Shown: positions 2,405 through 60,116 of the stretch, piece after piece
How the letters are laid out: each line of letters opens with the position of its first letter
Numbering within the stretch: the first letter of the stretch is position 1
Assembly (NCBI GenBank): GCA_036785375.1
Contig: JAWMAR010000489.1
Span: forward strand, 1,240,001-1,304,000
Source of the DNA: Leucoraja ocellata
Taxonomy: Eukaryota
Direction: 5' to 3'
DNA: 64,000 nucleotides
Notes under the pieces: generated by a model
Seen by the model: only the letters and a program-made list of their open reading frames with translations
Database searches by the model: none
Told to the model about the DNA's origin: nothing
Position numbers and translations under genes: made by a program

Positions 2405-2553
2405 GTAACTCAGCGGGACAGCTTTGAAGAAGGGTCTCGAGCTGAAATGTCACCCATTCCTTCACTCCAGAGATGCTGCCTGGCCCGCTGAGTTACTCCA
2501 GCTTTTTGTGTCTATCTTCGTTTAGACCAGCATCTGCAGTTCCTTCTTACACA
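2405..2553 (+). mobile_element. short Penelope-derived repeat with degenerate hammerhead core and a short 5' inverted piece
   Basis: ttgaagaagggtctcgagctgaaatgtcacccattcc...cagcatctgcagttccttcttacac; same family as 51821-51918. Confidence 0.75.
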
Positions 2554-3023
2554 AGAATGTCAAAATCATGAGCTTGCACTTAGTTATGGATAGGCTGTTA
2601 GCACTGTTGATAAATGGGAAGTGGTGGACCCATTGTCCTAATTGACTGGCCTTAAAAGGGACAAATTTACTGCTTTACATTTCAAACCAGGAAGTGATTT
2701 ATGAGAATTTGTTTCACAATAAACCAACATACACAAGAAGTTGTCCTACAACTTTAGGCTGAAGAAGAAGAACATACACAAGCAAACCTTATTTTATCAT
2801 CTTATTATCAACTCCTTTACAAAGAACCTTTCTATTAGATTTTAGTGAAAGTGTAGCTACCAATTAAAAACAAGAACATGAACTATGTCTCTTGAAGGGA
2901 TCAGAAGATCACCCCATACCATTCTTTTGAAATAATGCATTGTACGAGGTGCATTATTAATCGTCAAGCTGGGCAGGCCAGTCTTGCATGAATTCATTGC
3001 TGATCTTTGCCCCTAAGAAGTTA

Positions 3024-4598
3024 CAGTGCCCTCCATAATGTTTGGGACAAAGACCCATCATTTATTTATTTGCTTTTGTCATCCACAATTTGAGATTTGT
3101 AATAGAACAAATCACATGTGGTTAAAGTGCACATTGTCAGATTTTAATAAAGGGTATTTTTATACATTTTGGTTTCACCATGTAGAATGTTTATACATAG
3201 CCCCCCCATTATAGGGCACCATAATATTTGGGACAGAGCAATGCCATGTAAATGAAAGCAGTCGTGTTTAGTATTTTGTTGCATATCCTTTGCATGTAAT
3301 GACTGCTTGAAGTCTGCGACTCATGGACATCACCAGTTGCTGAGTGTCATCTCTGGTGATGCTCTGCCAGGCCTGTATTGTAGCCATCTTTAGCTTTTGC
3401 TTGTTTCGGGGGCCAGTCACCTTCAGTATTCTCTACAACCTATAAAAGGCAAGCTCAATTTGGTTCAGATCAGGTGATTGACTTGGCCACTCAACAATTG
3501 ACCATTTTTTAGCTTTGGAAAACTCCTTTGTTGCTTTAGCAGTATGTTTGGGATCATTGTCTTGCTGTAGAATGAACCGCCGGCCAATGCGTTTTGAGGC
3601 TTTTGCTTGAACATGAGCAGATAGGATGTGTCCATCAATGAAGATAAGTGAGCCAGTACCTTCAGCAGCCATACATGCCCAAGCCATAACACCCCCACCA
3701 CTGTGTTTCACAGATGAGGTGGTATGCTTTGGATCTTGGGCAGTTCCTTCTCTCCTCCATACATTGCTCTTGCCATCACTCTAATATGTTAATCTTGTCT
3801 CATCTGGCCAGAAGACCTTTTTCCAGAACTGTGGTTGCTCTTTTAAGTACTTCTTGGCAAACTGTAACCTGGCCATCCAACTTTTGTGGCTAACCAGTGG
3901 CTTGCATCTTGCAGTGTAGCCTCTGTATTTCTATTCATGAAGTCTTCTGTGGACAGTGGTCATTGACAAATCCACACCTGACTCCTGAGGAATGTTTCTG
4001 ATCTGTCAGACAGGTGTTTGAGGATTTTTCTTTATTATAGAGAGAATTCTTCGGTCATCAGTTGTGGAGGTCTTCCTTGGCCTGCCAGTCCCTTTGCGAT
4101 TAGTAAGCTGACCAGTGCTCTCTTCCATCTTAATGATGTTCCAAACAGTTGATTTTGGTAAGCCTGATGTTTGGCTGATGTCTCTAACAGTTTTATTCTT
4201 GTTTCTCATCATGGCTTCTTTGACTTTCATTGGCACAACGTTGGTCCTTATGTTGATAAACAGCAATAAAAGTTTCCAAAGGTGATGGAAAGACTAGGTA
4301 CTGAGAGCTCCCTTATACCTGCATTAAGGAGGCAATTAAACACACCTGAGCAATTACAAACACCTGTGAAGCCATGTGTTCCAAACATTATGGTGCCCTG
4401 AAATGGGAGGACTATGTATAAACGCAGCTGTAATTTCTACATGGTGAAACTAAAATGTGTAAAAATGCACTTTAATAAAATCTGACAATGTGCACTTTAA
4501 CCAAATGTTTTTTTTTCTATTACAAATCTCAAATAATGGAGTACAGAGGCAAATAAATAAATGATGGGTCTTTGTCCCAAACATTATGGAGGGCATTG
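3024..4598 (-). mobile_element. full-length but defective Tc1-family transposon with about 215-bp IR/DR terminal repeats
   Basis: TA|CAGTGCCCTCCATAATGTTTGGGACAAAG ... CTTTGTCCCAAACATTATGGAGGGCATTG|TA; transposase fragments HTH/GRPRK (ORF 4006..4266) and catalytic QQDNDPKH...WPSQSPDLNQIE (ORF 3433..3711), frameshifted. Confidence 0.95.
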
Positions 4599-5369
4599 TA
4601 TGCAAGCTGTTTTCTCCAAACTTAAAGCTTGGACAATCCCATGGCTCGATGATGCCTCCTTCTCCCTCCCTGCTGCTACTTCTTGTGACTGTTCTTCCCT
4701 CTTCTCACTATTTACCTATATTCTATCAAATTATTTGCCTGTATCGATACTTGAGCATTTAAATAAATGTTTTTTAAAGAACTTTTTGTAGTAATCTTGC
4801 CAATAGAAAGTACAAGGGGGGAGGATGGGGTGGGTAGAAACAGGGGGACAGATATTAGATTGACTGGAGCAACTAGAGGTAGTTCCATTCCATTTTTTAA
4901 GATAATTCATTCTGTGCTTTTAAAGCAAAGCTTGATGAAACACAATACAATTTGGAAAGCAATTAACTGCAACATATACATTTTAACTGTACAGGTTGAA
5001 AAGACAGTTGACAAAACCAAAGTCCTTTAGCACTACCACTGACAAATTGCAGACAAATATCCCAGTTGTATAACAACATTATGTTGTTATGTAACAACAC
5101 ACATTTCAATGATAAGCAGGCAGTATTAAAATACATGATTTTTTTTAAAGATTCATTTAAGTTTAGATTTTGATTAAATTAGTCAATGATAGATTTTTTT
5201 AAAAATCTGTAGGAATTTTCGGTGATTTTGTAGAAAACACTGCAAAACACAATCAGTGCACACTAAGGAATTAATAGAAGAAAATGAATGGGGAAAAAAC
5301 TAACATAATGACATGATTTAAAATCTTTTTGATTTATTAGTGGAAATTAGTGGACTTTATTAGTGAGCC

Positions 5370-5670: not shown

Positions 5671-5948
5671 ATCCAAGATGGATGTCAAACCGTTGAGAGG
5701 ATCACTAAAGATTAACTATTAAAACCAATAAATTACTAATATCTCCACAGTTGCAGAATCTCACTCAGCATGTTTAGGCCCATCTGACATTGGTATTGGA
5801 GTGATTTGGCATATTATTTCAATCATTTTATCAGCACACTTTATGAATATTTTGGATTAAATGTTTTTATTCACATTTTTTATTTGATTCAAACTAGAAT
5901 GCGTGAGCATATTCTCAGGATGCTGATTGCAATCTCCATCTCTTTCAG

Positions 5949-7772: not shown

Positions 7773-7827
7773 GTGAGGAGCTGCAGAGTGGAATCCATTT
7801 TTCAAACAGTTCTTTGTGAATATACGT

Positions 7828-7976
7828 AAGAAGGAACTGCAGATGCTGGTTTAAACCAAAGATAGACACAAAAAGCTTTTTCAGTCTGAAGAAAGGTCTC
7901 GATCCGAAACATCATCCATTCCTTCTCTCCAGAGATGCTGCCTGTCCAGCTGAGTTATTCCAGCTTTTTGTGTCTA
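7828..7976. mobile_element. Penelope-derived hammerhead repeat with 5' inversion and 17-bp TSD
   Basis: TCTTTGTGAATATACGT at 7811-7827 and 7977-7993; internal ctgaagaaaggtctcgatccgaaacatc. Confidence 0.85.
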
Positions 7977-12480: not shown

Positions 12481-12700
12481 TAGAAAAAAATGCTGGAGAA
12501 ACTCAGCGGGTGAGGCAGCATGTATGAAGTGAAGGAATAGGTGATGTTTCAAGTCGAGACCCTGCGATCAGTCTGAAGAAGGCTCTCGACCCAAAACGTC
12601 ACCTATTCCTTTGCTCCATAGATGCTACCTCACCCGCTGAGTTTCTCCAGCATTTTTGTCTACCTTTGATTTTTCCAGCATCTGCAGTTCTTTCTTAAAC
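12481..12700. mobile_element. head-to-head palindromic Penelope-derived hammerhead repeat with 15-bp TSD
   Basis: AAGATAGTCTGAAGG at 12466-12480 and 12701-12715; antisense arm 12481-12563 pairs with the sense arm starting at about 12580. Confidence 0.87.
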
Positions 12701-17590: not shown

Positions 17591-19528
17591 TAATTAAAAA
17601 AAAAGTCACCCATTCCTTCTCTCCAGAGATGGCTGCCTGTTACTCCAGCTTTTTGTGTCGATCTATGACTATTCAAACATTGTAATGTGGCCAAAATGAC
17701 ATCTGCAGGGACATCTCGGGTAGCTTCAACCACTACGTGCATGCAGGAAGCTCTCCAGAGAGATCTAAATCAGCAATCTGGCCCTTTCTGCCAAAAGGTT
17801 GCACCACATGGACATTCTTCTAAATAAAGGTTTACGTTTGTGCTTCTCAAAATGGACGTGAAATCCTGTGTATTGTTCAGCTATAGTAAATCAGATATGG
17901 TCACTAAAGTCAACAGCTACCATCATTGCTAAGATCTATGCAGCTTGCAGCATAAACCAGAAAAGTCTAATAGAAACTCCAGCCACAGTTAATCTACAGT
18001 GCAAAGAACTTGTTTTGCGTATTATTTATTTTTACAAGACTGACATTCAATTTTGTCCAGCTCTGTTCAATATTCAACTTGAATATTTCAAAAACAAATT
18101 GTTGCAAGCAAAGAAATCGTTTCCAGAAAAGATCTTATGCAAGGTGTACAAATTTTAATCACCACCACCTAATAATACCTTTTATCAGTATAGATACAGT
18201 TCAATTTAAGAACAAAAGTTAAAAAAACTGAATATCGACTGGTGGTACTGGATCCAGCAGATTTTCTGAATTCATGAATGTGATTCAGCCTTACACATTA
18301 ACACATTTTGAAAATTCACTTTTACAGATATTAACTTGAAACTTTCCAGTGAACCAAGTTTATAGAGAGCCTCTAATCTGGGATCCTGACATTACAGGAG
18401 GAAGCCAGTTGCCAAACCCTCAGGATTTCCAAATGGTCAAATAGCTGATTAGCTTATCTGTTGTTAGTGAAGATTAAAGTTTAATGATTCCATGGAAGCA
18501 GGACAAATATGTTTAAATTGTAATTATTATCCAAACATAATAACAAATATTTCCTGGTGTATTGTTTCATGAACTGTCATTGTAAATTTGCATGGGAACA
18601 GGGTACTTTTCTAATAATCTGTTATCTAATTATTCTGGGTTACTGATAGTTTGGTGCCTTTTCACCAGGACCAGCTTCCTTCATGCCCCCTACCAATATG
18701 TTCCAATTAACCCAGCAAGTATTATTTAAATCTGCAATATCAGAAAAATAAAATTAAGTGTGTTGTAGTATTAACAGAAATAACACTCAATAGTCCCAAA
18801 GATCTGCTTGTCTGGCACCATGTCCTGAGGGGTGCTGGATTATGGCCCAGCGGACAGCAGGGTCGGGAACCCGCCCAGAGGCCTTCTGGACCCGTGAGGG
18901 TGCTGACATTGGACGCGAGGGTGAACCGGGACAATGCCTGCAGCACCTTCAAGGTCAGTTGCAGGAGGCATCCCCGGGACACAAAGATGGCCGGACAAGG
19001 AGAGGGACGTTGGTTTGCAGGAACTGCTCCAATACATCAAGCATGCAGACGCGGAAAATGCACCAAAACATGCATGTGTAATATTTGTAAAACTGTGCAA
19101 TTGCAGATGTGATATACAAAGCACCATTGAGTTTTATTTCAATACTCCACAAGGAACTTGTGTTGGAGCCAACAAGCTCCACACAGCATGCTTCCCCCTT
19201 CTCCTCTGTCCACAATTGGCACTCAGCAGTGACTGAAATATTCAATTTGGACAAGGTTAATTCCTTTTTAAGGATCACTATGAAAAAAAACACAAGTATT
19301 TTGTCAGGCTGAGATTTTGGCTGTGTAACTTGTGCTTTTTCTCCCAGGAATTACCACAGTTTTAGTCCCTAATTAAGCAGCTGGACTGCATTCCATTCTG
19401 CTCAAACAGTTTACAATATCAGGAATTAATATAATTCCAAACTAAATTTAAATGAGAAATATTTGTGTGTAACTTTTAGTTTTGGTCTGTGTTACTCTCT
19501 CACAAATCACATTCAGTACAATACTTAC

Positions 19529-19752: not shown

Positions 19753-19937
19753 GGTTACACAAAAAAGCTGGAGAAACTCAGCGGGTGCAGCAGCATCTAT
19801 GGAGCGAAGGAAATAGGCAACGTTTCGGCCCGAAACTTTGCCTATTTCCTTCGCTCCATAGATGCTGCTGCACCCGCTGAGTTCCTCCAGCTTTTTTGTG
19901 TAACCTTCGATTATCCAGCATCTGCAGTTCCTTCTTA
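19753..19937. mobile_element. palindromic Penelope-derived repeat (about 75-bp arms) with 15-bp TSD
   Basis: AACATAATTGGCCAT at 19738-19752 and 19938-19952; inverted arms 19753-19828 / 19830-19905. Confidence 0.9.
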
Positions 19938-20149
19938 AACATAATTGGCCATTGCTGATCCGGGGCAGTTTGGGAAATTATGTTAAATGCTAACCATTGT
20001 CTGTCAAGTGTCCTATAAAATAAATAATTCGCAATTTGCAACAAATATACATTAATACAAGGCATACAAATACAACTGGAAAAAGTGAAAGACCATGTAC
20101 ATAAGACATTAATACAAGGCATACAAATATTTGGTAAATACCTCGGGAA

Positions 20150-20761: not shown

Positions 20762-20984
20762 TCAAATAGGACAGAATCTTATTTAACTATTAAATAATAC
20801 TTATCACATTAGTGATCACTAGTTTTATCTTAATCGATGAAACTATAAAAAGTGTAGTGAAAATAATTACTTGGTCCTGTGTACTACTTAGCATGCCCAA
20901 CTCTGCCTCTGATTTCTTTGAGGACAACAACTTTTCTTCAGAGTAAATATCCACAATGAGGTACATGATTAGAATGTTAATAAG

Positions 20985-21150
20985 TGACAGAGGAACTCAG
21001 TGGTACAGACAGCACGTGTAGAGACTGAATAGTCTGAAGAAGAGTCCCGATCCAAAACATTACTTGTTCGTTCCCTTCACAGAAGCTGCCTGACCAACTG
21101 AGTTCCTCCAGCACTTTGTTTATTGTTCAATATTCTAGCGCCTGCAGTCT
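20985..21150 (+). mobile_element. older diverged Penelope-derived hammerhead repeat with 5' inversion
   Basis: gtctgaagaagagtcccgatccaaaacatt...gctgcctgaccaactgagttcctccagc, preceded by an inverted gaggaactcag. Confidence 0.65.
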
Positions 21151-21357
21151 CGTAATGTATGTAATTTTGGCGTCAAATCTGACTAAAACACATGTTTGGT
21201 GCTAAGGGTTTGGACTTGAATGTACATTTGTTTTACTAAGAGCACTTTGGTAGTAATATCCAGGCAGATAGATACCAGAAAGATCAACCAAACTGAAAGA
21301 CACTATAATGCATCATTGTAGCTGTAAAACATTTTACTTTAGGAGATGAATGCTTTA

Positions 21358-23939: not shown

Positions 23940-26085
23940 GAGCAGCCATCCTCAGCGGAAACATGGGAGACGAGCTGGAGTACAGGTGAGATTGAAACAA
24001 TGAGGTTTCAAGTGCTCCCTCTCCAGCATTCTGCTGGTAAATGTACAGGCTACCTCGAACAAACTGGTTGGACTTAAAGCTAGACTTGTGTAAGAAGGAA
24101 CTGCAGATGCTGGTTTAAACCAAAGATAGACACAAAAAACAGGAGTAACTCAGCGGGACAGGCAGCATCTCTGGAGAGATGGAATGGGTAATGTTTCAGG
24201 TCGAGACTGAAGAAGGGTCTCAACCTGAAATGTCACCCATTTCTTCTCTCCAGAGATGCTGCCTGTCCCACCCGCTGAGTTACTCCAGCTTTTGTGTTTA
24301 AAGCTAGACTTATCCACCTTAGAGGGACTGCTGTATGCTCTGTGCTCACTCTTCCTCACCCAACAGTGCCATTCAATCAGAGGGCTTCTCGCTACACCAG
24401 ATGGACTGCAGAGCATCTTCGGGTAAGGTTAGGGTACTTTATAATTAACTCCACATGATGCTCAGACGTGTTGGTCCCGACGAGCTCCTGCTTCCCAGAA
24501 TTGGAATATGGTAGTGGTGTTGTTTTCCCTACCACCTGCCATGGAAATGCCCTTGGGCTGTCCTGACAACAGTCCACATTCCACTCCAGGATGATGCTAA
24601 GCTTGCACTTGAGGTACTACACACCATCGCCAATAGCCTTGAAATCAAGTGCCCTGAGGCCCCGGTCATAATAACCAGGGACTCAAATCAGGCCAACCTC
24701 GGGTATGTCCTGCCAAAATAATATCAGCACGTCTCCTGCTCAATCAGAGATCTAAACATCCTCATCCACCGTTACACAACCATCAGGAACACATGCTGCT
24801 GCAATCCCACTTTGGTAAATGTGATCACTGGCCTGCGCTTTTACTCCCTGTTTACAAACAGTAACTGAAGCGGGAGAATCCGGTTCAGAAAGTCGTACAG
24901 TTTTGGTCCGAGGAAACAGATGAGATACTTTGTGACTGCCACGAGTCGGAGGACTGATCCTTATTCAAGGACTCAGCAGCTGAGCAGGATGAATGAACCT
25001 GCTGTCACAGACGTCATCAACAAGTGTGTAAAGGACCGTGTACCAAAGACGACAATACATGTTTCCCAACTGGAAACGATGAATGAACCAAGTTACACTC
25101 CCAGGTGAAGTCGAAGTCTGCAGCATTCAAGTCAAACAATCCCGAGCAGTACAAGAAATCCATAATGACCTTAACACACCTATTAAGGATGCAGAGGGGA
25201 AATTGTGGGCCAAAGCAATGATCTGGACACCCACAGATTGTGACAGGGTAACGGCGAGCATCATTGGCGACAACTGATTGCTCCCAATGAACTCAATGCA
25301 GCTACTCTCGCTTTCAACAGAAGGCTGGTGGGGGAGGACGTCACCCACCCTGCCAGTTTCGGGTGCACCCGTACCAACAGTTACCCATGGCAGATGCGAG
25401 GTTGGCCTTGCCGAGTTAATCCGTGGGCCCGGCTGGAGTCCCTGACCCTGGCCTCATGACTTGGTGTGGATCAACTGGCAGAGGTATTCACAGACATCTT
25501 TAACCTCTCACTGCTCCATTCAGAGGTGCCAACCTGCTTCAAGAAGACCACTATCATTCCAGTAGCAAAGAAAAGTGAGGTAGCATGTCTGAATGACTAC
25601 CATACAATGGCTTTGATATCCACCATTATTTACCCTCAAAGTGATGGTGCACATTAACCCCAGCCTCCCAGCCTGCCTTGATCAACCCGCAGTTTACTTA
25701 CAGTCACAAAGTGTCCGCAGCAGACATCATCTTCCTGGTTCTAAATGACCCCAGTCATTTCTCCTTCTCCCTGCTCCCATCTGGCAGACAATACAGAAGC
25801 TTAAAGCATTCACCCCCAGAGTGAGGAACAGCTTCTTCCATTTTGTTATCAGCTTTTGAATGATTCTTTCATAAGCCAGAGTACTGTCAAATTCATCTCT
25901 ACGCCATTATGGACAATGGACATTGTCTGCGGAACTGATGGACCACAATGCTAAGAACATTCTACTCATTGTGCTTGAGTTTGACTTAAATGTATTTATG
26001 TTTGGATTACCAGATTTATTTTTGGATAGTAAGTGAAACAAAGCTTTTCACTGTACTTCGTGCCCATGACATGAACTGAACCTAA
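23940..26085 (+). mobile_element. degraded Rex1/Babar-like LINE (APE endonuclease and RT remnants)
   Basis: Remnants PSILLVNVQ; [35 protein letters not shown] (ORF 25466..25657); SGRQYRSL C-terminal motif; interrupted by a hammerhead repeat. Confidence 0.8.
24088..24297. mobile_element. palindromic Penelope-derived hammerhead repeat nested in the LINE, 14-bp TSD
   Basis: TTAAAGCTAGACTT at 24074-24087 and 24298-24311; inversion point near 24205. Confidence 0.87.
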
Positions 26086-29745: not shown

Positions 29746-30022
29746 AAAAATACACTTATGAACATTGAAATGAGCTTGATCAAATGGGTGTGTTGTGGAC
29801 ACATGGAACTGCAGATGCTGGCTTACAAAGTGTACTGCTGGATTGACCCTTCTGGAGCAGTGGCAATACAGCAGCAGGTGATGTAGACATCAAACTCAGA
29901 ACATTTGGGACCCCATGATCATTTGGCTCATTCCTTATCTGGTTATGAGGGCACCGACTTTAAATAATCATGCCTAGATAAATGCAAGATAACATTAAAA
30001 ACGGATTCATTTCAATACTTAC

Positions 30023-33380: not shown

Positions 33381-33471
33381 CTATAATTGTAAAGATTAGA
33401 AAATACCAAATCATACTTTGTCTTTAGTACTATAAAAATGAATTCTGCAGAACAGAAAATATGGTCTGTTA

Positions 33472-33560
33472 TACAGAAAAGCTGGAGAAACTCAGCGGGT
33501 GCAGCAGCATCTATGGAGCGAAGGAAATAGGCAACGTTTCGGGCCGAAACCCTTCTTCAG
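33472..33560 (-). mobile_element. Penelope-derived repeat with intact minimal hammerhead core on the - strand
   Basis: - strand reads CTGAAGAAGGGTTTCGGCCCGAAACGTTGCC. Confidence 0.8.
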
Positions 33561-33744
33561 TTTACTGTTTATAAATGATATATCTAACCTTAATGATTTA
33601 GGACCATGGAAAATAAACTTTTTGCACTGGTAAAGTCAACTATAGCAGTGTGACCCAATATAGAAATTAACACCGTGAAACTGAAATACTTAGAACAAAT
33701 TATGGCTTTTACATCGACAACATGGAGAATTGTTTAGATATAAT

Positions 33745-35012: not shown

Positions 35013-35164
35013 CTGAAATATCAAGAGTTTGAGAGCTTAGTACCATTATTTCATTTAAGAATGGCATTTGTGAAAGCCCTTAATTCAACACTTTTAACTG
35101 GTGTTCATAGGAATTTGAACACCCTTGTACATGACCATTCACAAAAAGAGAGAGGTATGGATGT

Positions 35165-35348
35165 TTAAGAAAGAACTGCAGATGCTGGAATAATCGAAGG
35201 AAGACAAAATGCTGGAGAACATCCGCGGGTGAGGCAGCATCTATGGAGAGAAGGAATTGGCGATGTTTTGGACCCGAAACGTCGCCAATTCCTTCTCTCC
35301 ATAGATGCTGCCTCACCCGCGGAGTTTCGCCAGCATTTTTCGTCTACC
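35165..35348. mobile_element. palindromic Penelope-derived repeat with 14-bp TSD
   Basis: AGAGGTA(T/C)GGATGT at 35151-35164 and 35349-35362; ORFs on both strands begin with the same peptide MRQHLWREGIGDV, confirming the inverted repeat. Confidence 0.88.
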
Positions 35349-38245: not shown

Positions 38246-39551
38246 CTTAAAGTAAAACAAAATTGAACAAGCACATTCATTTCATGAAAAATAAAACACA
38301 ATCTTTTGATGCACTTTCCATATGGCAAAACTGAAGGGATTGGTCCAAACATCTGATGTACAAGAACAAATTTTTTTGTCCACACCGTCTCCTCCTGGCT
38401 CGAACATCTTTTACTGTTTGGCACCCACATTGTGGCAACAGATCTCAAATCTTATAATATAAATAGCTCAGAGGTCCTTGCATAACTGGGAGTCAAGATG
38501 ACAATTGTTTTCTAGGCAAATTAATTTTCTTTGAAAGCCTTGGAAGAGCAAGACTCCATACTCAGTGGAAGGCCCCAGTACTGGCAAACTGGCAGCGCCA
38601 GTAACACAAGAACAATACGAGAGGAAGCCCAGCTTTCACAGAAGGTACATCAATGCTAATCATATGATTGGAAGGCAAGTGGCACCAGGGATTAAAGTCA
38701 AACAACAAAGCAAAATTAAATTACAGAATTTTGCTTTCCCTTTCTTGAAAAAATCATTTACAGATTTAGTTTAGTCATGTCCCACCCAACCACCCAAAGC
38801 TTTGATGTTCTAAAAGCAATGTGTATTATTGGCAGCATTATATCCACATATTGACTTCATTAGGGTGATGTTTCTTCATTCAATGCCGTGACATTTTGCA
38901 TCCCTTCTTTCAGTCCTGGCTGGATCAACTTCTGAGATGCACTCAGTCACAAGATTAAATGTATTTTCTTGTATCTTTCTGGAAAATATTGAGATTAGAG
39001 TTATCTTATCTCCCATTTTCACAAGATACCCTTTGCATATTTCAACAACCACGCCAACATTCCAACATTCTTTTTCCAAGAGTCAGATTTCCTTGAGTGC
39101 TTCTCCGAACAGCAGCTATCATGCAGTTTGATTTTTTTTCTGTTCACAATACTGAATGGCCATTTCCACTCATGCAGTCTTCGCCAGCAATCCTTACAGG
39201 CAGGCCACTCATCTACTCTCTGCCAGTAAGCAAATCCATTTTCTCCCAATATATCTACCATCTTCGCCAACTCCATTGCTGTTGTGCATTCTCTGCTTTT
39301 TGCAATGCATCTGAAGTTGAAAATTATTTCAACACTTCTGCATTTCAATTATGTAATCACATTGAGGTAAAAGACTGGGGCCATCATTGCATAATTGTCA
39401 GATTTAGAACCACAAATCACTAATAAAATGTTTGTGATGTCTGAACAAAATAAAAGGTTTATCCAATAGAAATGTATAAATTGTTTCTCTACAGAGGCAA
39501 TGCTCTACTCTAAATTCAATATTGCAATCCGATGGCAAAGATCGACACTTT

Positions 39552-39649
39552 GTCTGAAGAAGAGTCTTGACCCAAAACATCACCCACTCCTTCTCTCCAG
39601 AGATGCTGCCTGTCCCACTGAGTTACTCCAGCTTTTTGTGTCTATCTTC
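39552..39649 (+). mobile_element. Penelope-derived hammerhead repeat (degenerate core)
   Basis: gtctgaagaagagtcttgacccaaaacatcacccactcc...gtctatcttc. Confidence 0.75.
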
Positions 39650-40371
39650 AATACTATAAACTAACTGGTCCATTGTAGATTGAGAGATCTTTAGTGATTA
39701 GCTCACATCTGTAAGGCATTTAGTAAAAACTCAAACAAGCTTCATCTCACAAAATACAATGTCCTAATTATTTGTGATGGAAAGGTTCATGGATTCTCGT
39801 GGATAACAAATAGAAATGTGAGTAACCACCAAGGCATTTGGCAAGGACATACAAAAAACAAGTGTCATGGATGCAAGAAGCTTCAATTTCAGCTTGTGTG
39901 CAAAGTCTCCAATGATTCCGGTCCTAGCCACCCACCTGACGCACTCTGGGCTCTAACCCTGGCCCCTACCATATGCATGACCTGACCCCCCTCAACCCAA
40001 ATCACCCCCAGCCCCCACATGTTCCCAAACTCAATAAGTGAATCCACATGTGGTAAACGAGCAGATGAGAATTGTGTGCATTGCAGAGTTCTTATCCACT
40101 TTCAACTGCACATAAGCACATGCCTGATATAGTCCATCTCCTTTTAACTCTGCACACATCACAGGATCAACACGCATTGGATGCACTTCCCCAGCAGCCT
40201 GGTACAAGATCATCTTGCAATCAGACATCTCCAACAGTTTTGTTCACTTTAGACACAACCAATGCTCAATCACTTGGGTTCAATCTTCACCAGAACATAA
40301 CTTTATTTTAATTTATCCAACTCTTCCTTCACCTGGCTGTTGATGCACATGGACCAGGTAAAGGCTTGTAA

Positions 40372-40516
40372 TGTGTAGGAAGGAACTGTAGATGCTGGTT
40401 TACACTAAAGATACACATAAAACACTGGAGTAACTGGAGTGGGACAGGCAGCATCTCTGTTTCTGAAGTCTGAAGAAGGGTCTTGACCCAAAACGTCACC
40501 CATCCCTTCTTTCCAG
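40372..40516. mobile_element. Penelope-derived hammerhead repeat with inversion and TSD
   Basis: AAAGGCTTGT at 40360-40369 and 40517-40526; core ctgaagaagggtcttgacccaaaacgtc. Confidence 0.8.
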
Positions 40517-41139
40517 AAAGGCTTGTTATGTTTGCTTTTGCATCCGATTTGTTGTGTTTGATATGAACAGGTACTGAGAATTTTAATACTCAGGTACTAT
40601 GGAACCTTTCTGTATACTTTCCTAATAGTATGCCAAAGTACAAGTTTGAAACATTCATGCTAAATGTAGTATAGCTTCAATTTCCATCGAGATTGTTTAC
40701 CTAATATTAGTCTTAATATAAACAATCACAACCATTGGTAATTCTCTTTGCCCACTGTGACTCACTAAACTTCTGGTCTAAGTCTTCTTCTTCACCTTCT
40801 TCTTCGTGTCCATCTTGTTACAAATGTTGAGCTCGCTGTCATCGTCTGTCCTGAAAAGGACGCAAGCTTCCGGCGACAATCAGTGGAAGCCATCACTTGT
40901 CGTAATAGATGATGGTGGTACAAAACGTCATAAATATCTTTTGAAATTTGTTCTATTCTTCATCTATTAATTTGGCCACACTTTTTGTTACCAACGCTTG
41001 CCCATAATTGATTGATCTCCTGCCCCACAAATACTCAAGATTATGTATTGACCAGTGGACCCTGATTTAGTCTTGAAGTCAATCTATTTTCTGCAATCGT
41101 AATTCTCCTTTGTTCTAATGAACCAAATAGTACAGAATT

Positions 41140-41262
41140 CCTGAAGTCCCAACCAAAAATGTCACCTATCCATTTTCTCTAGAGATGATGCCTGACCCAC
41201 TGAGTTACTACAGCACTTTGTCTTTGTTTGTGTTAAGCCAGCATCTGCAGTTTCCTTCCTCT
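41140..41262 (+). mobile_element. Penelope-derived repeat, core partly deleted
   Basis: gtcacctatcc...agagatgatgcctgacccactgagttact...cagcatctgcagtttcc. Confidence 0.65.
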
Positions 41263-42335: not shown

Positions 42336-43185
42336 CATTTGAGACTCAAAATGTCATGAAAAATTCTCATATTTTTTATTCTGAATTCCTTAGACCATAC
42401 TGTGAGAATTGAGTGCTTCAACATCTATGCAATAAGGCTCAACAATCTGCAAAAACTTGGACTTTGTAAACAGCAAACAAATTGCATTCACTAGTAAACT
42501 ATAAATGCCGGCATCAAAATGCTTCAAATCTTGTTTTCCTAATAAAAACCAACTAGTGCTAATTATAAGTTCACTGGCATCCATTAACAATGATTAAAAC
42601 AGACAGACTCACCATTAAAACAGAAGAATTTTCAGACAGCAATCCAGAAAGTTAAGAGTATAAATTTCAATTGACTACTTCATTTTACTGAAATCAGATT
42701 TTAAAAAATGAAATACAGCCTTTGTCTTATTTATCCATCATGGAATTTCAATTGGATTACACAGCTCAACTCTGAATGTTCATATTTCTTCCCTTCGAAC
42801 CATTGAATTTTGCACAATAACAGTTACTGCCTTAATACGGATACATCCACCAATAATTCTACCATTATGAACAAGAATATATTATTTCTCCTCCTGGACT
42901 TTCCCTGTGGGTCAGAGATGACTTGTATCCATTCAGTTCTTTTGTCTACCTGCCTCTAGCCACGACAACCCCCCACAAAAATCCTCAGCCAAACTGCAAA
43001 TATTTACACCAATTCAATAATTTGCTTGAATTTCCTATAAGGCTATTATTTGAAATAAATGCATCATTATTTTTGAAAATTGCTATGAAATATTCCATTA
43101 ATGCTTGAAAAAAAAAGAACACTTTCTGGGCAGTGCATGAGGTTTTGCAAGATGAAGGGATGAAAGAAAAAGCAAAAGAACCAAA

Positions 43186-43304
43186 TGTGTAGGAAGGAAC
43201 TGCAGATGCTGGTTCAAACCAAAGATGGACACAAAATGCTGGAGTAACTCAGTGGGACAGGCAGCATCTCTGGATAGAAGGAATGGGTGATGTTTTGGGT
43301 TGAG
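43186..43304 (-). mobile_element. Penelope-derived repeat, truncated within hammerhead stem II
   Basis: Reverse complement of family consensus: aggaactgcagatgctgg...ggagtaactcagtgggacaggcagcatctc...gggtgatgttttgggttgag. Confidence 0.75.
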
Positions 43305-45179
43305 CAACATAATCAAGTTATGTTTCCCCGAATTATGAATTACTGCTGACCAGTTCAATCACATGCAAGATAGTTGTATAAAGAAAGTAGTATGGCTGTT
43401 TGGAAAAAGTCCTCAAATCTAATTTAAAAAGTTGTTTGATGTGAATCAGTCAGTTGATCTAGAAATGAGCCGCAGTGGATGCAACTAAAACAGGAAATTA
43501 CTGACCTCAAAAGACAGATGTTTTAACAATGGAAAGCAATCCGATAAACAAAGGAAGAAATACAGTCTGGAAGTTCACACAGTTAACCAAATTTACACAG
43601 ATCATTATCATCATGTTGTGACATTGTGTTTGATAGAACAGACCCTCGGAGTTCAACAGATCAAAGGATATCACATCTGACTGTGACAGGCCATCAATAT
43701 AACAAACTTTATGAAAGCTCCTACACACAGAGCCTTTTTAAGTGCTCATGCTATGATATGAAGTGGAACCCGATATTACATAGTACATTAACTACCAGTT
43801 ATCAAACTTGCTCACTCCTTGAGAATGAGTTGCAATCAATGATGCTTTAGCAAAACTGATTGGTGCTCCAAAGTAGGCAATACATATAATGTCAAAATAT
43901 TAAAGAGGTGATAAAAATTATAAATATAGTTTAATTATAAAATATTAAGCAACAGTATTTCCAAAATATAGCCAACATTAATTATACATTGAAAGTTTTT
44001 TTGCTAGTTAAACATTCATTGACAGAGTTAAACTACTGTTGCTTATTAACTTCTACAACAGATACTGACGATAGTTTACTTTCAAAATTGTGACATGTTT
44101 GAGTGCAAACTTCAAGGTAGTTTGAAAGCCAGATATTCAATGTTTGGCCATAGAATAATTTTTCATCGGTAACGGCATTCAGAGATATATTACAATATAT
44201 GGATGGTTTGAGAAAGTAAATACGTTTTGTTTACCCAAAGACTTTAACTTGTAAACCTCAGTGACCCAAATAAATAAATAACCCAGTCAAGAAATTGCTT
44301 ATTACTAATTCTTCAGCAACATCGTCATGCATCTCCTCTTTCAGTGATCCTTCCAGTGATGTGATCAAACCATGCACCCGGAACTATACATATGGTTTAA
44401 ATTTTACACTTTCAGCATTATCTGCTTAGTCTCATATTCCATGCCAGAATCTATATATGCATGTGTCTCATTATAAATTTTAAGTTTATCTGTCAATCTA
44501 TACCGGTTTTGCTATCTTCAGGAGTCTATGAACCTGCACTTTAAGAGTTCTGGTCCTCTACATATTCAGCACCCTCGTATTTTATAATGCATTCCCTGCT
44601 CAAAAGTCACAAGATTCAACAAGTTTGAGACCAAATACTGCAGCCATTAGTTGCACATGATGATCGCATGATTCTGCAGTGTAACACAGTCCAGCTGTGT
44701 TTCTGTCACGGATAAAAGACATCTCCACCTTAAAAGTACAGTTTGCCCATTAATCCACTTTACAAGAGCAATTTTCACTTCTGTCAATGATTACATGAAT
44801 TTAACAACCCATGAACCATCACCTTTCTCTTTAACAGTTATTGTTCAATTCCATTTCTAGATTTAGAAGTTGCTATAGTTCTTCTGAGGCAGTCTCTTGG
44901 GATTAAGGACAATTTATTACCACTCTGATTCTGTAGCTTCCGAGTTGGCTATCGAGACCAATGTGGCTACTGCAGATACTTCCAGAGATGAAGCAGGTGA
45001 GTGGGTGGTTTGAGAGTTGCTGCCAACATAGGCAGGGCTTGTGTGTGTTTGACACATGGACTCGGGGTTCTAAATATTATGCTCTCCACTTTGTGTGGCC
45101 ATTTCTAAGATCAGTGTGGATACTTCATTTTTCAAAGAGCCAAATACATCTCTCTCTCTCTCTCTCTATATATATATAA

Positions 45180-45870: not shown

Positions 45871-48800
45871 TAAATCGTTTCAGCTATCTGCTTGGTAATT
45901 TATTTCCAGAGCAGAGAATGGTATCAGGTTTGGGACTCTCATGCTAGGCATGTGAATGAGATAGCTGTCCAAAGTCCTCAAGTATAATGAGAGCTTCTTT
46001 GCTGGGGATCTAAAATGAGAATGTTGGGAAAATCTAGGTAGACAGGCTGCAGCTGTGGGAAGAGAAATGGATAAGCATTTCAGATTTTGAGACCCTTTGT
46101 CAGAACTCACGAGGATTCTATGACCTGTAATATTGTCTTTCTGTCTCTTCCCACAGATACAGACCAGCCTGTTCTTATCTCAGATTTTGATTTTTTTGTC
46201 TTAGATTTCTAGCATCTGCAATATTTTGATATTCAATGCTGTGGTTGTTGACATTGGAAAGGAGAACAATGCTGGCTTGTCCATTCCTCAAATTTATAAA
46301 CTGCATTGGTGCCCACTCTATGTAGCCCAGCTCTCACACCAAAATATTGCAGGAATCTCCACTGACTGGTACACCACACATTTTGCCCCAGGTCCAAGAT
46401 CTTGATGTTCAAATCCAGCTTTCTTTAAGTAATCAAAGGCTTGGCTGACACTTGGAGTTGCCAGTAAATTTCATTTCCAAGATTATCAGAACCTTTATTG
46501 GTGAGCAACAAAAGGTCATGGGCACTGGTTGTTGTTTCATTTTTCTTGGAGATGGTATGTGGTGAAGATCATGCCCACTGTTTCACTGGATGGACGTAAT
46601 ATTTACACGGGGAAGAGATAATTGTGGAAGACCTATACTTGGCACCATTTGAAGTTGAATAGCAGGCAGCAGAGACCACCACTTCCTTGTTCTCATTTTG
46701 TCGTTACCAGCTTAGGCTAGCCTTCCTTCTTGGAAATTATTATGATCCCAGCAACTGAGCTCCAGGCATATCATCATCCTCCAATGTGGAAAATGAGATT
46801 GTGGTATTGTTTATGAAGCTCTTCATTTCTGCTTCAGTGTAGCAACCAATGAACTGATGGAATTAACCATTTGGTATAGTTGCTGATATGAATGATATGA
46901 ACTCATTCACAACAAATTATTGCATTTAAATAAAACATATCAATTTACTGCAAATTCATTTTCTCCAATATCATTGACTTAAAATTCCATTCTATGTTAA
47001 ACAAGGCAGCATCATTGCCCCAATACATTCCACAAACTTTCCAAATTTGAATCATGGTCTAGTTCTACAGTGTGTACATTATGCATGGACTTAATACTTC
47101 TTATGTCTTGAAACAGAATCTCACTTTGCGAATTTCAACAGGAAATCCCACAACAACTTTAGTCCAAGCAGTGGACTGAAAAAAGAGTTAATTTTAAAGC
47201 CTTATTAAAAAGTTTAAAGTTGAACATCGAGTTCTACAACTAATTCTCTACAAATCAAGTTGCAATTCATGATATTTTTTTTAATTAAACTTTATGAACT
47301 TGTAATGCACCATCCCAACTTCATGTACAAAAAAAATCAAAATATTAATGTAGTTTGATTGCACGTGATAAAATGTACTATTCAGAAAGACACTAATGGT
47401 TAGTTAATGGTATAAAAAAGTGACAAAATTTATTATGCAGCACATAATGTTAATTAATTTAGTGGTGGCAAAGGAAACCCACATATTAATATAGTTTAAA
47501 ATTCATACATTTGAAAAAAAGGAATGCAAATTATAAACAGGAAGTGTCTATGTGTGCAGTCAATTCATAATCTGGATCTTAATGTCTCGTTTCCTTTCCC
47601 AAAGGACCTCCCCTGCAGTACAAAGTCATTATATATTGCTAATGCTCTGGCCACTGTGCTGACTCTGCTGGAGTTCACCATAAAACCCAACGGTCCCAAC
47701 GTATACTCTCCAGCAGGAAATTGCAGAACAGCGATTAGCAATAGGAATGCAGGCAGATGTTTATGAAGCTTAAACATCTCAAGTTAAACTATGCATCCCA
47801 CTCAGTGGATTTCAACTTTGGCAACAGCATATATTCAGTATCATTTGTTCCATGGTATGACCCCCATGAACCTGCACAGATGGGATGCAGTTACCAGTTT
47901 CCGTCCACATATTTTAACCATTTGTGATCAAATTATCTCTTGACTGCCCTCCAGGATCAAGGATAGTCCATTTCACTACAGTTCAATGGGTTCCCGGGTG
48001 ATTGATAAGACCAGCATGGGACTGGAAACTGCCTTCAATAAGGTAGGTTATCTATAATAGAGTGGATAGTTTATCGAAGGTGGTGCACCACTTCTTCAGC
48101 CTTTATGATGCACGATTCAAATGAATGAACATCAATGTTATCCCAAACATTCCCCCTCCAAGGGCCAGAGATTATCACGTCAGTGAGGATATTATATTTG
48201 TTCAAGGCTTTGAGAACATCCTGTCCAACTGGTAATCTGTGTTTTGGGAATCTGGCATGGAAATGAAATGGCCTGTTCACTGGAGCCAACTGTATGAAAC
48301 AATGTTTTGATTATTCTTCCAGTGCACAACAGCAGTAGAAGTATCACTCTTGTGATTTGAGAGGCACTTGCAATTTGAGAGGCACTTGTTGTCCATGATT
48401 CAGAAGTGTTTAGGAAGATTTCATTTTGTTCCATTAGTTTTGTGCTGAAGCCTTTACTCTCTGGGTTAATTTATTAGTGTATTCAAATAGAAACATACAA
48501 TGATGAAACAATCCCTTTTGCCTATCGTTAACACTGATCCTCAATCACCCATTTTAAAGTAAACTACATTAATTGCTTCTTTAAATTTGCCCACATTCTC
48601 TTCAGGTCCTTTCAGATTCCACTACTCAAACTTGTGGCAATTTACTGGCCAATTAATCCACCAACCAATCTTTGGGATTTAAGGAAACCAAAGCACCTGG
48701 AGGAAACCAAGTGTCACAGGGAGAATCTATAAACTACACACAGACAGACTCCTCTCAAGACCAGAATGAAAGAACATAAATATAAGACAATCACAAATAA

Positions 48801-50487: not shown

Positions 50488-50645
50488 GCTGCCATCTAAA
50501 AAAATCTCATGTAAAAAAATTCTTACAAGTACCTCAATTACATCAAGCTCCACTTTTTAGAATATGGAAAAACAACTTAACGATGAAATTTAACCCATAT
50601 TTTAGCACCATCACAAAACCCAAAACAGCTCAATAGGTTTTCTTT

Positions 50646-50768
50646 TAAAAAGAACTGCAGATGCTGGAAAAATCCAAAGTAGACAAAAAATGCTGGAGAA
50701 ATTCAGCGGGTGAGACAGCATCTATGGAGAAAAGTAGGTGACGTTTTGGGTCGAGATCCTTCTTCAGA
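50646..50768 (-). mobile_element. Penelope-derived hammerhead repeat with TSD
   Basis: - strand tctgaagaaggatctcgacccaaaacgtcacc; flanking TCAATAGG(G)TTTTCTTT duplicated at about 50630 and 50769. Confidence 0.8.
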
Positions 50769-50977: not shown

Positions 50978-51495
50978 CTGGGGAAAATATACTATATTCA
51001 ATTCATATTCATTATTTTTAATTATTGGAAGACAAGATGATCAAAATGTAAACTCTGCAAACAACCCCTTGATTTTGTCTAGCACTTAAGATGAACAAAA
51101 TACACTTCCAATGGTGTGCACATTCCTGGGAGCAAATCTTGCTGAGAAAACAAGACCTTTAGCTTACATATTCACAAAATAAGGGGTCAGCCATTTAATA
51201 ATGAAAAGAAGAATTTCTTCTGACTGGCTTCCAAATCTTTGGAATTCTCTAATTGAGGGTACTATTGGGGCAGAAGCATTAAATAGACTTAATGAAATAC
51301 AATTTTCACTCTTAACAGGAAATCGGCCTCTTGATTAAGTGAGGAGACATAAATTATCTATTTGTAACAGAGACGGGTATACAAGGGATCTAAAATAGGT
51401 ATTTAAACAGGGTGTGAGCCAAGATAAACTGTTACAATTAACAGAGGGGCCAAGAACAATGGGGCATAGAATGGAAGTGACATCGATAGGACCAA

Positions 51496-51918
51496 GCGTA
51501 GGCTTAGCGATCGCCCAACACCTCCGCTCAGTTTGCAATAACCAATCTGATCGCCCAATGGCTCAGCACTTCAACACCCCCTCCCATTCCAAATACGACC
51601 TTTTTGTCCTGGGCCTCCTCCATGGCCAGAGTGAGTCCAACTGCAAATTGGAGGAGCAGCACCTCATATTTTGCTTGGGTAGTTTACACCCCAACGTTAT
51701 GAACATTGACCTTCAATTTCAGGTAGTCCTTGCTTTCTCCCTCTTTCCCCTCCCCAGCTCTCCCACAGCCCATGGTCTCCGCCTCTTCCTTTCTTCTTCC
51801 CGCTCCCCCCACCCCCACATCAGTCTGAAGAAGGGTCTCGACCCGAAACGTCACCTATTCCTTCGCTCCATAGATGCTGCCTCACCCGCTGAGTTACTCT
51901 GTATTGTGTCTACCTTCA
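51496..51918 (+). mobile_element. 5'-truncated Penelope-like retroelement: GIY-YIG endonuclease C-terminus plus pseudo-LTR
   Basis: QHLRSVCNNQSDRPMAQHFNTPSH...VLGLLH...KLEEQHLIFCLGSLHPNVMN (ORF 51414..51953); 10-bp direct repeat ATAGGACCAA at 51486-51495 and 51919-51928. Confidence 0.88.
51821..51856 (+). ncRNA. minimal type I hammerhead ribozyme motif of the Penelope element
   Basis: CUGAAGA (51825-31), extra A, stem II GGGUC/GACCC, GAAA (51845-48), palindromic stem III ACGU, predicted cleavage after GUC (51852). Stem I is only about 2 bp. Confidence 0.7.
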
Positions 51919-52328
51919 ATAGGACCAACATTACTTCTTTCAAAATACAGTGATTAAAGCCTTGGATGGTATGGGTGGTGGCTTAAACTGAAGCATTGAA
52001 ATGCTATTTCATCAAGTATCTGAAATCAAAGAATGTGCAGCGATGGGGAGGAGAACGTTGAAGCGTGGTGACTACTTGGATTGCTTTTGGATCAAGAGAG
52101 TATGGACATCATGGCCAGAATCTTGTGCTTCTGTGTCACAAACATTCCACGACCATTAAAGCAATGAATTTTCTACAATAAACCGGAGTTTTACAATCAG
52201 TTCTTAAGCCTTCCTTCTCTTCAATCCTTGTTCCCAATCATTGGGCAGTGCCATAAATGACCAATTACCTCAGAACATGTGACAATAATAAGCTAAATTG
52301 TTTTTTTTCAATAAAGAAATGCTCTCAC

Positions 52329-56088: not shown

Positions 56089-56189
56089 CTGTCAAGGTAA
56101 AAGCATTAAATTGTAAAAGAAGGGAAAAACACACCTTGTAGTTACATGGAAACAGACAGCTGATGTTAATCCTGAACAGTACCATCATT

Positions 56190-56367
56190 ACATTTTTGCA
56201 TTTCTTTCATTCATTGCTCTTTATCTCTCCACATCACCGTTTACATCTCTTGTTTGCCATATCTCTAACCAGTCTGAAGAAGGGTCTCGACCCTAAACGT
56301 CATCCATTCCTTCTCTCCAGAGATGCTGCCTGCCCCGCTGAGTTACTCCAGCTTTTTGTGGCTATCA
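56190..56367 (+). mobile_element. Penelope-derived hammerhead repeat with pyrimidine-rich 5' part, in a 403-nt LAMB1 intron
   Basis: cagtctgaagaagggtctcgaccctaaacgtcatccattcc...gctgagttactccagc. Confidence 0.8.
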
Positions 56368-56491
56368 ATGTTTTAAAAAACTTGGATATTGAAATATTAA
56401 GATCCAATGGGTTAGACTTAATACAACATCCGTATTAGAATGGATGACCAACATAAACTAACAATCACCTTTTAAAAAATTAAAAACATAC

Positions 56492-56993: not shown

Positions 56994-57980
56994 CTAAAAA
57001 TAAAAAAAGGTACAATTACAAATGGATGACTGTTAATTTGAACTGAACAGCAAATGCATTTTAATGAACTAAATTTTACAATGAAATGCAAAGTGGAATA
57101 ATAGAAATCTCTGTATGAAATCTCAGGCACATCTACTTGGGTGAGCTGTTGCAATATATTTTTCCACTGTTACATGGCATTAATCCACTTCTCCAGGGGA
57201 TGGTCTCAAAAAGACCTGGTTAAATCCTTGGAATGTTGGAGGTAAAGGCAAAATTGTGAAAATAACAGAAATAATAAGAGAAACAAAAAAAATCAAATAT
57301 TTGTTCTTAAATAGAATCTTTATATTTGCTTCAAAGCATAAAACAATTGATTATCTGCCAAATTAGAACATTGCAGCTGTAACTAAAATAGTGGTCAAGT
57401 TTCTAACTTTATAAAGAGAGGGGGAGTTAGAGAAGAATTACACAACAAAGCTGTCTGAGAGAACATCTGCCAATAAAGATGAGAAGGAGGGATGAGTTCC
57501 TATGTTGGAACAATGAAAGCTTCTTGGGGAGATAAATAGCTCTAAGGGAAGGCAAAACTTTAGCATAAGAATTGGAGGCATTGTAGGGCAGAGTAATGCA
57601 AATTAGACAAGAGAGCAATAAAAGATGAATAAGGACCCAATTTGGAAATATGTCACTGGATGGCAAATATTCTATCAGATACGATAGCAGCATTTGAGAG
57701 GCTTTTCGAAAGGTGCATGGCAGACAATTACAATTAGTTTATCCTGGCCCGTTCCTGTGCTGTCCTGTTCTACATTTTATGTTCTTAATGGGGAAAATTA
57801 TATAGGTTTTTATTCAATAAAATATGCATTTATGCCCACTGCTGCCATGGGCACCGATCAATAATTTTGCTTAAACTAAACGGCTTGCCAGAAAACATAA
57901 AAGTTGAGAATTGATCAGCAGTTGAAATTTAAAAAAAAATAGCACTTGATAGAAATCCAAAACACAAAGCATATTGGAAG

Positions 57981-58105
57981 AATGAAGAAGGGGTTCGACC
58001 CAAAACGTTGCCCATTTCCTTCGCTCCATAGATGCTGCCTCACCCGCTGAGTTTCTCCAGCATTTTTGTCTACCTTCGATTTTCCAGCATCTGCAGTTCC
58101 TTCTT
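57981..58105 (+). mobile_element. Penelope-derived hammerhead repeat with 14-bp TSD
   Basis: AAGCATATTGGAAG at 57967-57980 and 58106-58119; core tgaagaaggggttcgacccaaaacgttgcc. Confidence 0.85.
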
Positions 58106-60116
58106 AAGCATATTGGAAGTGTTCAGCAGTTCAGGCAACATCAGTAGATAGAAAACAATTTTAAAACATCAGTTCCATGTGGCTGACTGACACTGCTCCA
58201 CGTCTCAGCACTTCCAGCATTGTTTGTATTAAGAATTGACAATATTGGCGAGAGTCTGGGGTCACATACCTGGCTCTAGAGCAGAATTATCTTTCTGTAA
58301 AGGCAACAATTTACTAGAAGAATTCGCCTGACAGTTTCATTGCCTCACTGCTGATAGTAGTTTTTTTTCCAAAATTGCATTAAATTAGCAATACACCAGC
58401 TGCGAATCTGAACATGCTTCAGTCCAGACATCTGGCCTACTTGCCCAGTTGTTTAATCACTATCAACCTGATATTGGTGAATAGGTGATCATAAACAATC
58501 ATGGTATTAGACTTAGCCAATGCCTTTTTCTATTATATTCTTCAAGTTAACGTTAGAAAAAAGCTAGGATCAAATACAAAGCTTGGCTTGTGGAGCAAAA
58601 GGAAAAAAAAAGGTGTTTTTTTTAAATATCCAACTTTAATCCACACTGGATTTCCAATTTTCTGGAAACTGAACAGATAAAATGCTGGTTTGTAGCAGGA
58701 ACAGAATTCTCACATTGTAAAGACGTCTTTGATTCCAACATTTTGAGAAAAAAGATAAATAGCTCATCTTTGAAATAATTCGCACAAGGAAGAATATGCA
58801 GCTTTCCATTGGTGAATTCACTTCTACATGGTCTCATTGCCAAATTGCTTTCTCCATTATGCATTTATGCATACAGAATTTAGTTGCAAATGGTGCAAAT
58901 ATTAATGTTCAGGCAGTTTATTTTAGATATAGATCTCCATTTTAACATTTTCTAATTTTTACAGGGATTAGAATTAAGTTGATTAAGAATGGCCTACTCC
59001 TGCACCTATTTTTCTATGTTTCTATCCAGAAATCTATTTGAAATTAACTAATTGACCAGAGGATGTAGAAATATGAATAGGAATCAGAGGGGTAACTTTT
59101 TCACCCAAAGTGTGGTGGGTTTATAGAACAACTGCCAGATGAGGTAGCTGAGAAAGGGACTATTGCAATGATTAAGAAACAATTAGCCAGGTACATGGAT
59201 TTCCACACTGTACAACTATAAGTAAGGAATTATTTCCTCATCGCCAATTGGTCTCTCCAGATTTGTGACTGAGACACCTCAGCCTGGTGTCCAGGATTTT
59301 TAAAGTTTAATTGAATTCTCGGATGTTCATTTTAAAACAACTAAAGAGGCCTATCAAGTCAACCTCTCATTAAACTAGACATCTTGTTACCTCATTTAAA
59401 TCTTGTTACCACATAGGCTAAAGCACCATTTACTTTCTCACCACTTACTGCATCAGCACTGAGGACTTTTGTGACGTGTACAAGCAGACCTAGATCCCTA
59501 GAAACATCTATAATGTAAAATTTCTCTGGTTAAAAAATATTCTGCTTATTCTTATTTATGCATTAAATACACGGGAGCCAGTAACAAACTTAATTAACAT
59601 AACAAAAATACACTCCCTCAACTTCCTTAAACTAAGAAGGCATAGCAAATGCCTGGAACTTCTCTTATTCACTCGGTTTATAATGTATAACGATCTTTCA
59701 CTGTCTTTTAATGAAGTAATCAACTAACCTTTGAAATATTTGCTGTATTTTGATCATGGGTTTTGCTTGTAACTCTTTGAATGTATTTTTAGAGATTCTT
59801 TGCTTTAAATAAACTTTTGATGGTGGACCTCCTGCAAGCCCTACCTTGCCTTCATCCCATGGACCAAAAGCATGGAGGTCAGTAGACACTGACAAGAATA
59901 AAGTATCAAATCATTTGAATCAACATGTAATGCCAGAATGGTCACTAAAACAGTTTCCAGAAATTTTGGAAAGTACTTTTTTTCTTCACAGCAAGAGCAA
60001 AAAGGCAGCAAAATGTGAATAAAAGCCAAAAGTAATATTTTTCCAAACATACAAGAAAATATTAAAGTGCAGAAGAATTAACTACCAAATGTACCACCTT
60101 GATAAGCCCTACTTAC

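Follow-up and report, generated by a model that had tools for sequence, protein, structure and literature searches.

The window analysed here is a stretch of 64,000 nucleotides of the Leucoraja ocellata genome (contig JAWMAR010000489.1, positions 1,240,001 to 1,304,000), which contains numerous copies of a short repeat carrying a predicted hammerhead ribozyme. These repeats are the pseudo-long terminal repeat (pLTR) ends of several subfamilies of endonuclease-positive Penelope-like elements (PLEs). The short copies are likely dead-end complementary DNAs (cDNAs) of the first 100-135 bases of the PLE RNA, written by the element's own protein; taken as a whole, we give this explanation a probability of roughly 70%. 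The repeats are real and abundant and are explained by a known kind of element, and their value lies in a mechanistic record rather than in a new class of repeat. Statements on published systems refer to passages of the papers cited.

Identity of the element

Among the 30 best genome matches of the repeat several extend 350-650 bp upstream into a cysteine-rich linker and a GIY-YIG domain, and the window copy at 51480-51920 also reaches this coding end (E 4e-28 to the endonuclease piece of locus L051). Further upstream the long copies encode a reverse transcriptase (RT), so that the order read in the long loci is RT followed by a C-terminal GIY-YIG domain (RVT_1 E 2.5e-6 and GIY-YIG E 4e-4, each falling slightly short of its curated cut-off). 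Partial tandems forming pLTRs were detected at L171, L193, L395 and L398; L171 and L193 are full-length, and their repeat with its tail leads on into the body of the element. Since long RT/GIY-YIG copies end in the repeat and partial tandems continue the repeat into the body, the repeat is identified as the pLTR of an endonuclease-positive PLE. The link to Penelope suspected in the first-pass annotation is thereby borne out, the same segment both ending and beginning long RT/GIY-YIG copies.

The linker preceding the GIY-YIG domain (CNRRKCYTC) matches the CX2-5CxxC pattern of the Neptune clade, a motif described in PMC8557442 as common to Neptune and Nematis, and by this motif the element appears to be of the Neptune type. 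The closest named relatives of its protein are found in rays and sharks; a PDB search yielded no match. The inverted 5'-truncated arm with an optional tail of 30-40 bp, a trait of endonuclease-positive PLEs, is present as well, and in L081, a multi-kilobase head-to-head insertion, only one of the arms is tailed. Near-identical full-length partial-tandem copies were also seen on many small contigs (L171-L173, L193-L220), and in L171-L173 the copy adjoins a TG-rich satellite of several kilobases.

Abundance and subfamilies

An unselected sample of 910 kb, picked by coordinate from 16 contigs of the 3.44-Gb genome, was combined with the window to 974 kb. It contained 365 arms, which resolve into 225 single and 70 head-to-head insertions with one tail-to-tail neighbour, corresponding to approximately one insertion per 3.3 kb. 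These 295 insertions compare with 33 endonuclease loci and 6 RT loci in the same 974 kb. Target duplications, counted at a score of at least 8 with swapped flanks as controls, were found at 34 of 70 palindromes (controls 8/346) and at 40 of 225 single copies (controls 13/670). Genome-wide, an exact 41-base motif of the youngest subfamily has 56,521 matches and a second exact motif 38,645.

The single arms comprise 95 short, 41 long and 24 ambiguous copies and 65 truncated inside the repeat. Subfamilies differing in diagnostic positions do exist, as had been noticed before, and four of them are main ones: clusters 1-4 each include short, palindromic and long members, and cluster 6 has one long member. 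Short and long copies show a similar spread of the young variants (chi-square p 0.24), and among young copies they carry the tail at similar frequencies (short 16/44, long 10/24, p 0.79).

The 5' boundary

Positions in the repeat are numbered from the T of CAG|TCTGAAG (+1). From the first 97 listed places of the 41-base motif, all on contig C1, 90 were evaluated, and the removal of 9 duplicates left 81 young arms. Their 5' ends lie at -5 to +5 in 44 arms, beyond -60 in 24 (three of these placed by eye, as indels misled the script), at -14 in one and at +8 to +30 in 12. Seventeen of the 81 begin at G-1, the usual first base of short copies (G51823 in the window), and none at T+1. The stop rate thus amounts to about 0.064 per base in the peak vs 0.0007 just upstream, an approximately 90-fold difference. 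In a second subfamily the boundary looks alike by eye (30 loci, several being duplicates), and copies continuing into the body start near it too (L364 at G-1, L394 and L387 at +1). The upstream tracts differ among subfamilies, yet each ends in a pyrimidine run before CAG.

The expectation that 5' ends would peak at the ribozyme is therefore supported, though not for the cleavage site: the sharp peak lies about 30 nt upstream of the predicted cut, and only 5 of the 225 single arms of the unselected sample begin at the cut-site profile columns 35-37. Extreme 5' truncation, the other origin that had been considered, is an incomplete account, as the ends are stacked at one position instead of being scattered, which indicates the end of a template. 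The boundary sequence TCAGTCT fits the initiator (Inr) consensus.

Between the target duplication and the first base of the element a short filler was observed in L244, L247, L303, L326, L350 and L353, often copied from nearby target or element sequence. Furthermore, loci between about 0.3 and 2.8 Mb of contig C1 are repeated in mirrored order on opposite strands (L244/L308, L245/L307, L247/L305, L253/L302, L254/L301, L255/L270, L256/L269 and L258/L266); either about 1.2 Mb is duplicated in inverted orientation here or the assembly is at fault.

The 3' ends, tails and palindromes

The repeat has two 3' ends, near +100 and +135, about 35 bp apart. The single copies end at the short site in 104 cases, with the tail in 96 and elsewhere in 25. 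In the head-to-head insertions the two ends are combined: exactly one arm is tailed in 48 of 53 classifiable palindromes, where 26.5 would be expected (17 pairs could not be classed). Both arms belong to one cluster in 39 of 46 pairs (18% expected), and the longer 5' reach is that of the untailed arm in 25 pairs and of the tailed arm in 9, with 14 ties. Palindromes centred on helix II of the hammerhead recur across different variants and with either centre base, so that repeated formation fits better than descent from one master copy.

A model for the origin of the short copies

We propose that RT would initiate within the 5' copy of the repeat, at about +100 or +135, and run off the end of the RNA. 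The 5' end of this RNA would be the boundary base and most likely reflects transcription starting at the Inr-like TCAGTCT. Both nicked target strands would be extended, each strand using one of the two RT start sites, and the resulting cDNAs would join at their 3' ends, often via the self-complementary helix II, to yield a palindrome. Long copies would derive from templates reaching further upstream, and the ribozyme would leave the copied template uncut. The start site, the protein dimer and the shared template are parts of this scheme that we infer. As only the 5' repeat of the partial tandem has body sequence after it, priming there would copy back to the RNA 5' end and predicts a fixed boundary, as observed. 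If the two strands are primed at different sites of a single RNA, the one-tail rule and the longer leading (untailed) arm are likewise predicted, and both are seen.

A precedent is provided by an Anolis PLE in vitro (PMC11167929), for which both target strands were reported to be cut and extended, two internal RT start sites bound the tail, RNA 3' of these sites is required, and the main substrate is uncleaved RNA, a dimer being predicted.

Several points weigh against this proposal. The in vitro precedent is a Poseidon-clade element, the boundary was placed from genomic copies, and the young sample stems from one contig and is blind to ends past +31. Cluster 5, consisting of 12 old arms, is without any long member. 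RNA evidence came from one polyA run of a relative, of which about 6% was read and in which intronic copies dominate; it showed no pile-up of read starts in the pLTR, and the pLTR was represented on both strands about equally. In Drosophila virilis, moreover, the start site is followed by an intron extending to helix I (PMC2377424, PMC4209133), and G-1 could accordingly be a splice-related or structural stop instead of a start site.

The copies that read through the tail bear on the nature of the template. The tail-to-body junction motif has 372 genome matches, and among 35 unique read-through loci 31 break off at +178 to +272, while 4 run through to the end of the sequence examined. The 31 broken loci mostly resume in the pLTR or the upstream tract, several of them at -6 to +4, which fits re-priming of the RT on the same RNA; an internal deletion between two pyrimidine-rich stretches could also account for them. 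These break-off points lend additional support to a more specific but distinctly more tentative version of the model, in which the main template would be a short transcript, beginning with the first hammerhead base and reaching about +200 to +270, copied by a dimer from two start sites onto both strands and able to re-prime from its 3' part after the run-off at the 5' end. If so, several hundred thousand strong-stop-like cDNAs would be present in the genome, in which the start, priming sites and template jumps of PLE transposition could be read with base precision. In that case a sense template would also be favoured, a question left open in the passages of PMC3846280.

Alternative explanations

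One alternative retains the origin from the autonomous element and regards the boundary as a place where RT is strongly stopped on a longer RNA, or where this RNA is processed, owing to the hammerhead foot, to protein binding or to the acceptor-like (Y)nCAG. It stays a rival because the 2-bp helix I begins exactly at G-1 and the differing upstream tracts all have the acceptor-like end described above; the intron of Drosophila virilis, ending at helix I (PMC4209133), is consistent with it. We nevertheless regard it as doubtful, since a helix is expected to halt RT before it is crossed and not after, the longer spliced-junction motif, standing for the intron-less copy, has 0 genome matches in comparison with 10,933 of the unspliced donor pattern, the young subfamily has not conserved the donor, and none of the joints listed from the polyA run of the relative is spliced (a further 111 and 46 joints stand outside this list). 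Candidates for spliced copies across the upstream tract were obtained with a short junction motif (67 genome matches); none of the 20 inspected has the coding end at the junction, and the matches belong to another subfamily whose tract ends in those bases. A back-spliced circle junction was found in none of the 360 loci examined.

For the palindromes alone, PMC3846280 proposes that one cDNA or an antisense RNA folds back and primes itself, which would explain why the centres often lie on the self-complementary helix II and why both arms come from one subfamily. Many joints, however, are asymmetric and contain spacer bases (gaps of -30 to +105), and the untailed end coincides with the 3' end of the 104 single copies at the short site, which fold-back does not predict. 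Two-strand priming is hence preferred, and fold-back seems rather improbable.

It appears very unlikely that the short copies constitute a non-autonomous RNA of about 130 nt, similar to a short interspersed nuclear element (SINE) or a retrozyme, which solo copies would supply by transcription and which would be multiplied in trans, perhaps in circular form. The very high copy number, the fixed 5' end, the excess of short over coding copies and a slight excess of non-consensus bases common to both palindrome arms (0.85 per pair vs 0.35 in random pairs) would suit it. Against it, copies neither start nor end at the cleavage site, tandem arrays are absent (20 direct neighbours among 365 arms), short copies form no clade of their own within the main subfamilies, recurrent palindrome centres are found in different variants and with either parity, and the sequence 3' of the RT start, required according to PMC11167929, is missing from solo copies. 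The self-copying family suggested in the first-pass annotation is consequently abandoned: the same pLTR variants end long coding copies, and tail use does not separate short from long ones. A lineage of its own apart from the autonomous partner was not found, cluster 5 leaving a small doubt, and a head derived from transfer RNA (tRNA) is absent: the window contains no tRNA, the head being the hammerhead itself.

The hammerhead and the pLTR

The minimal hammerhead in the pLTR, recognised by sequence alone, spans -1 to +31 with a predicted cut before +30. In the window it is composed of a 2-bp helix I (G-1, T+1), CTGAAGA, an extra A, a 4-bp helix II and GAAAC-GTC. An Rfam search revealed no hammerhead or other ribozyme family and gave miRNA-like matches that were judged spurious. 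The copies had been thought to keep the core; only those at 51821 and 33472 have an intact CTGAAGA..GAAACG, and G12 is retained in 185 of 264 arms. The downstream pairings AGATGCTG/CAGCATCT and GCTG/CAGC are invariant in the main subfamily consensuses, so that the covariation proposed as a check is absent from them. Folding stability of four copies was unremarkable (z-scores 0 to -1.1).

An ATG at +51 or +52 is likely the start of the open reading frame (ORF); its frame continues through the tail in read-through copies. A predicted in-frame intron of about 120 nt (AAG|GTATG to CCCAG|) was noticed in L171 (5005-5124) and also in L398 and L375. Judging from the donor pattern and the frame, this putative intron (about +163 to +282) would join the pLTR-encoded N-terminus to the ORF; its loss, searched for with one motif, had 0 genome matches.

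Copies in the window

A search of the window with a profile of the repeat family recovered 17 of the 18 previously listed copies at E below 1e-12, the copy at 46020 being matched weakly as two opposed arms, and added one fragment (Table 1). The reversed window, used as control, gave zero matches, and a self-comparison of the window also confirmed the family. Target duplications of 12-19 bp flank 8 of the 18 copies (at 7822, 12474, 19754, 24084, 35161, 40369, 50639 and 57979), and a ninth, ATAGGACCAA, lies at both ends of 51480-51920, the range across all nine being 10-19 bp. Both the number of copies and their independent insertion are thus confirmed. The copies are neither all ORF-less nor all bounded at the ribozyme, as had been stated: 51480-51920 holds a GIY-YIG C-terminus, and the copy at 56270 extends about 90 bp into the upstream tract.

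The presence of a laminin-EGF exon near 55730-56206 on the minus strand suggests that the window copies sit in introns of a host gene. The region around 57981 (L001, contig C489) has a near-identical second copy on contig C252 (L002), likely an uncollapsed haplotype. Other two-copy repeats of the window are unrelated to the pLTR family (3022-3235/4377-4600, 8685-8822/25748-25887, 28596-28669/53002-53080, 31570-31794/50236-50470 and 45182-45624/49692-49987).

Table 1. pLTR copies and associated features in the window.
Position	Strand	Feature	Target duplication	Basis
2423..2556	+	single pLTR with tail	not clear	
7828..7976	.	head-to-head insertion; tail on left arm	19 bp	
12481..12700	.	head-to-head insertion; tail on right arm	15 bp	
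17601..17672	+	partial pLTR, degraded		profile search
19754..19945	.	head-to-head insertion, youngest subfamily, centre TTTCGGCCCGAAA; tail on right arm	17 bp	
20982..21151	.	old pLTR; inverted arm weak		profile search
24084..24300	.	head-to-head insertion; tail on left arm	16 bp	
29800..29849	-	degraded fragment, absent from the earlier list		profile E 1e-4
33469..33563	-	single pLTR without tail; core intact		
35161..35348	.	head-to-head insertion; tail on left arm	14 bp	
39551..39652	+	single pLTR without tail		profile search
40369..40523	.	head-to-head insertion; tail on left arm	15 bp	
41146..41257	+	single pLTR with tail, older		profile search
43183..43305	-	single pLTR with tail		profile search
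46020..46231	.	head-to-head insertion, very degraded		profile E 0.0015 and 0.089
50639..50764	-	single pLTR with tail, begins at core	at least 12 bp	
51480..51920	+	longest copy in the window, with the coding end of the GIY-YIG C-terminus, a pyrimidine tract and an untailed pLTR	ATAGGACCAA	
51823..51854	+	predicted minimal type I hammerhead; predicted cut after 51852		sequence and pair table
51874..51920	+	ATG in pLTR, likely ORF start		frame continues through tail in read-through copies
56180..56376	+	pLTR without tail, with subfamily-specific upstream tract of about 90 bp		
57981..58105	+	single pLTR with tail	14 bp	

Comparison with known systems

A search of open-access main texts retrieved no paper on these pLTR repeats or on a sharp PLE 5' boundary. 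The architecture itself is familiar: inverted pLTRs, one-sided tails and palindromic joints have been described (PMC3846280, PMC8557442, PMC8969392, PMC2377424). With the endonuclease-positive PLEs of PMC3846280, PMC8557442 and PMC2377424 the element shares the RT with C-terminal GIY-YIG domain, the CX4CX2C linker, the partial tandem of full-length copies, the head-to-head inverted 5'-truncated arm, the optional one-end tail of 30-40 bp, the palindromic joints and the target duplications. Unlike in these published cases, most insertions consist of the pLTR only, at about one per 3.3 kb and with duplications of 9-20 bp, and a single-base 5' boundary, as seen here, is absent from the passages of the three papers.

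Thousands of dispersed minimal hammerheads have been tied to truncated PLEs in metazoans (PMC4209133), and their role in PLEs has been called a mystery (PMC7761336). The predicted hammerhead resembles these minimal type I motifs in the extra base between 9 and 10.1, the G10.1-C11.1 pair, the palindromic 15.2-16.2 and the occurrence mostly as single dispersed motifs with some opposed pairs. Helix I has 2 bp as in Drosophila virilis and helix II has 4 bp, in comparison with PMC4209133, and the copy numbers are far above the 4,000-9,000 of coelacanth and Xenopus given there.

Non-LTR retrozymes are similarly non-coding, carry a type I hammerhead, are related to PLE pLTRs and are likely moved by the PLE protein. 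They are defined as tandem units (PMC7761336; bioRxiv 10.64898/2026.07.22.740005), the head-to-tail units being cut ribozyme to ribozyme into circles, whereas the insertions described here occur singly or head-to-head, without cleavage sites as their boundaries. In repeat libraries they should be classed as PLE ends and not as SINEs, miniature inverted-repeat transposable elements (MITEs) or microRNA hairpins.

A further parallel is the Anolis Poseidon element PAc (PMC11167929), which is alike in the two internal RT starts bounding the tail, the extension of both strands and the uncleaved template. PAc belongs to another clade and has its ATG at helix II, in contrast to about 20 nt past the cut site here, and run-off or palindromic products are not reported in the parts of that paper covered. 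PLE transposition is poorly understood, and the copies described here form a dense in vivo record that fits this one in vitro study and adds numbers to it: a near single-base 5' boundary, a one-tail rule for palindromes, and template ends placed without regard to the cleavage site.

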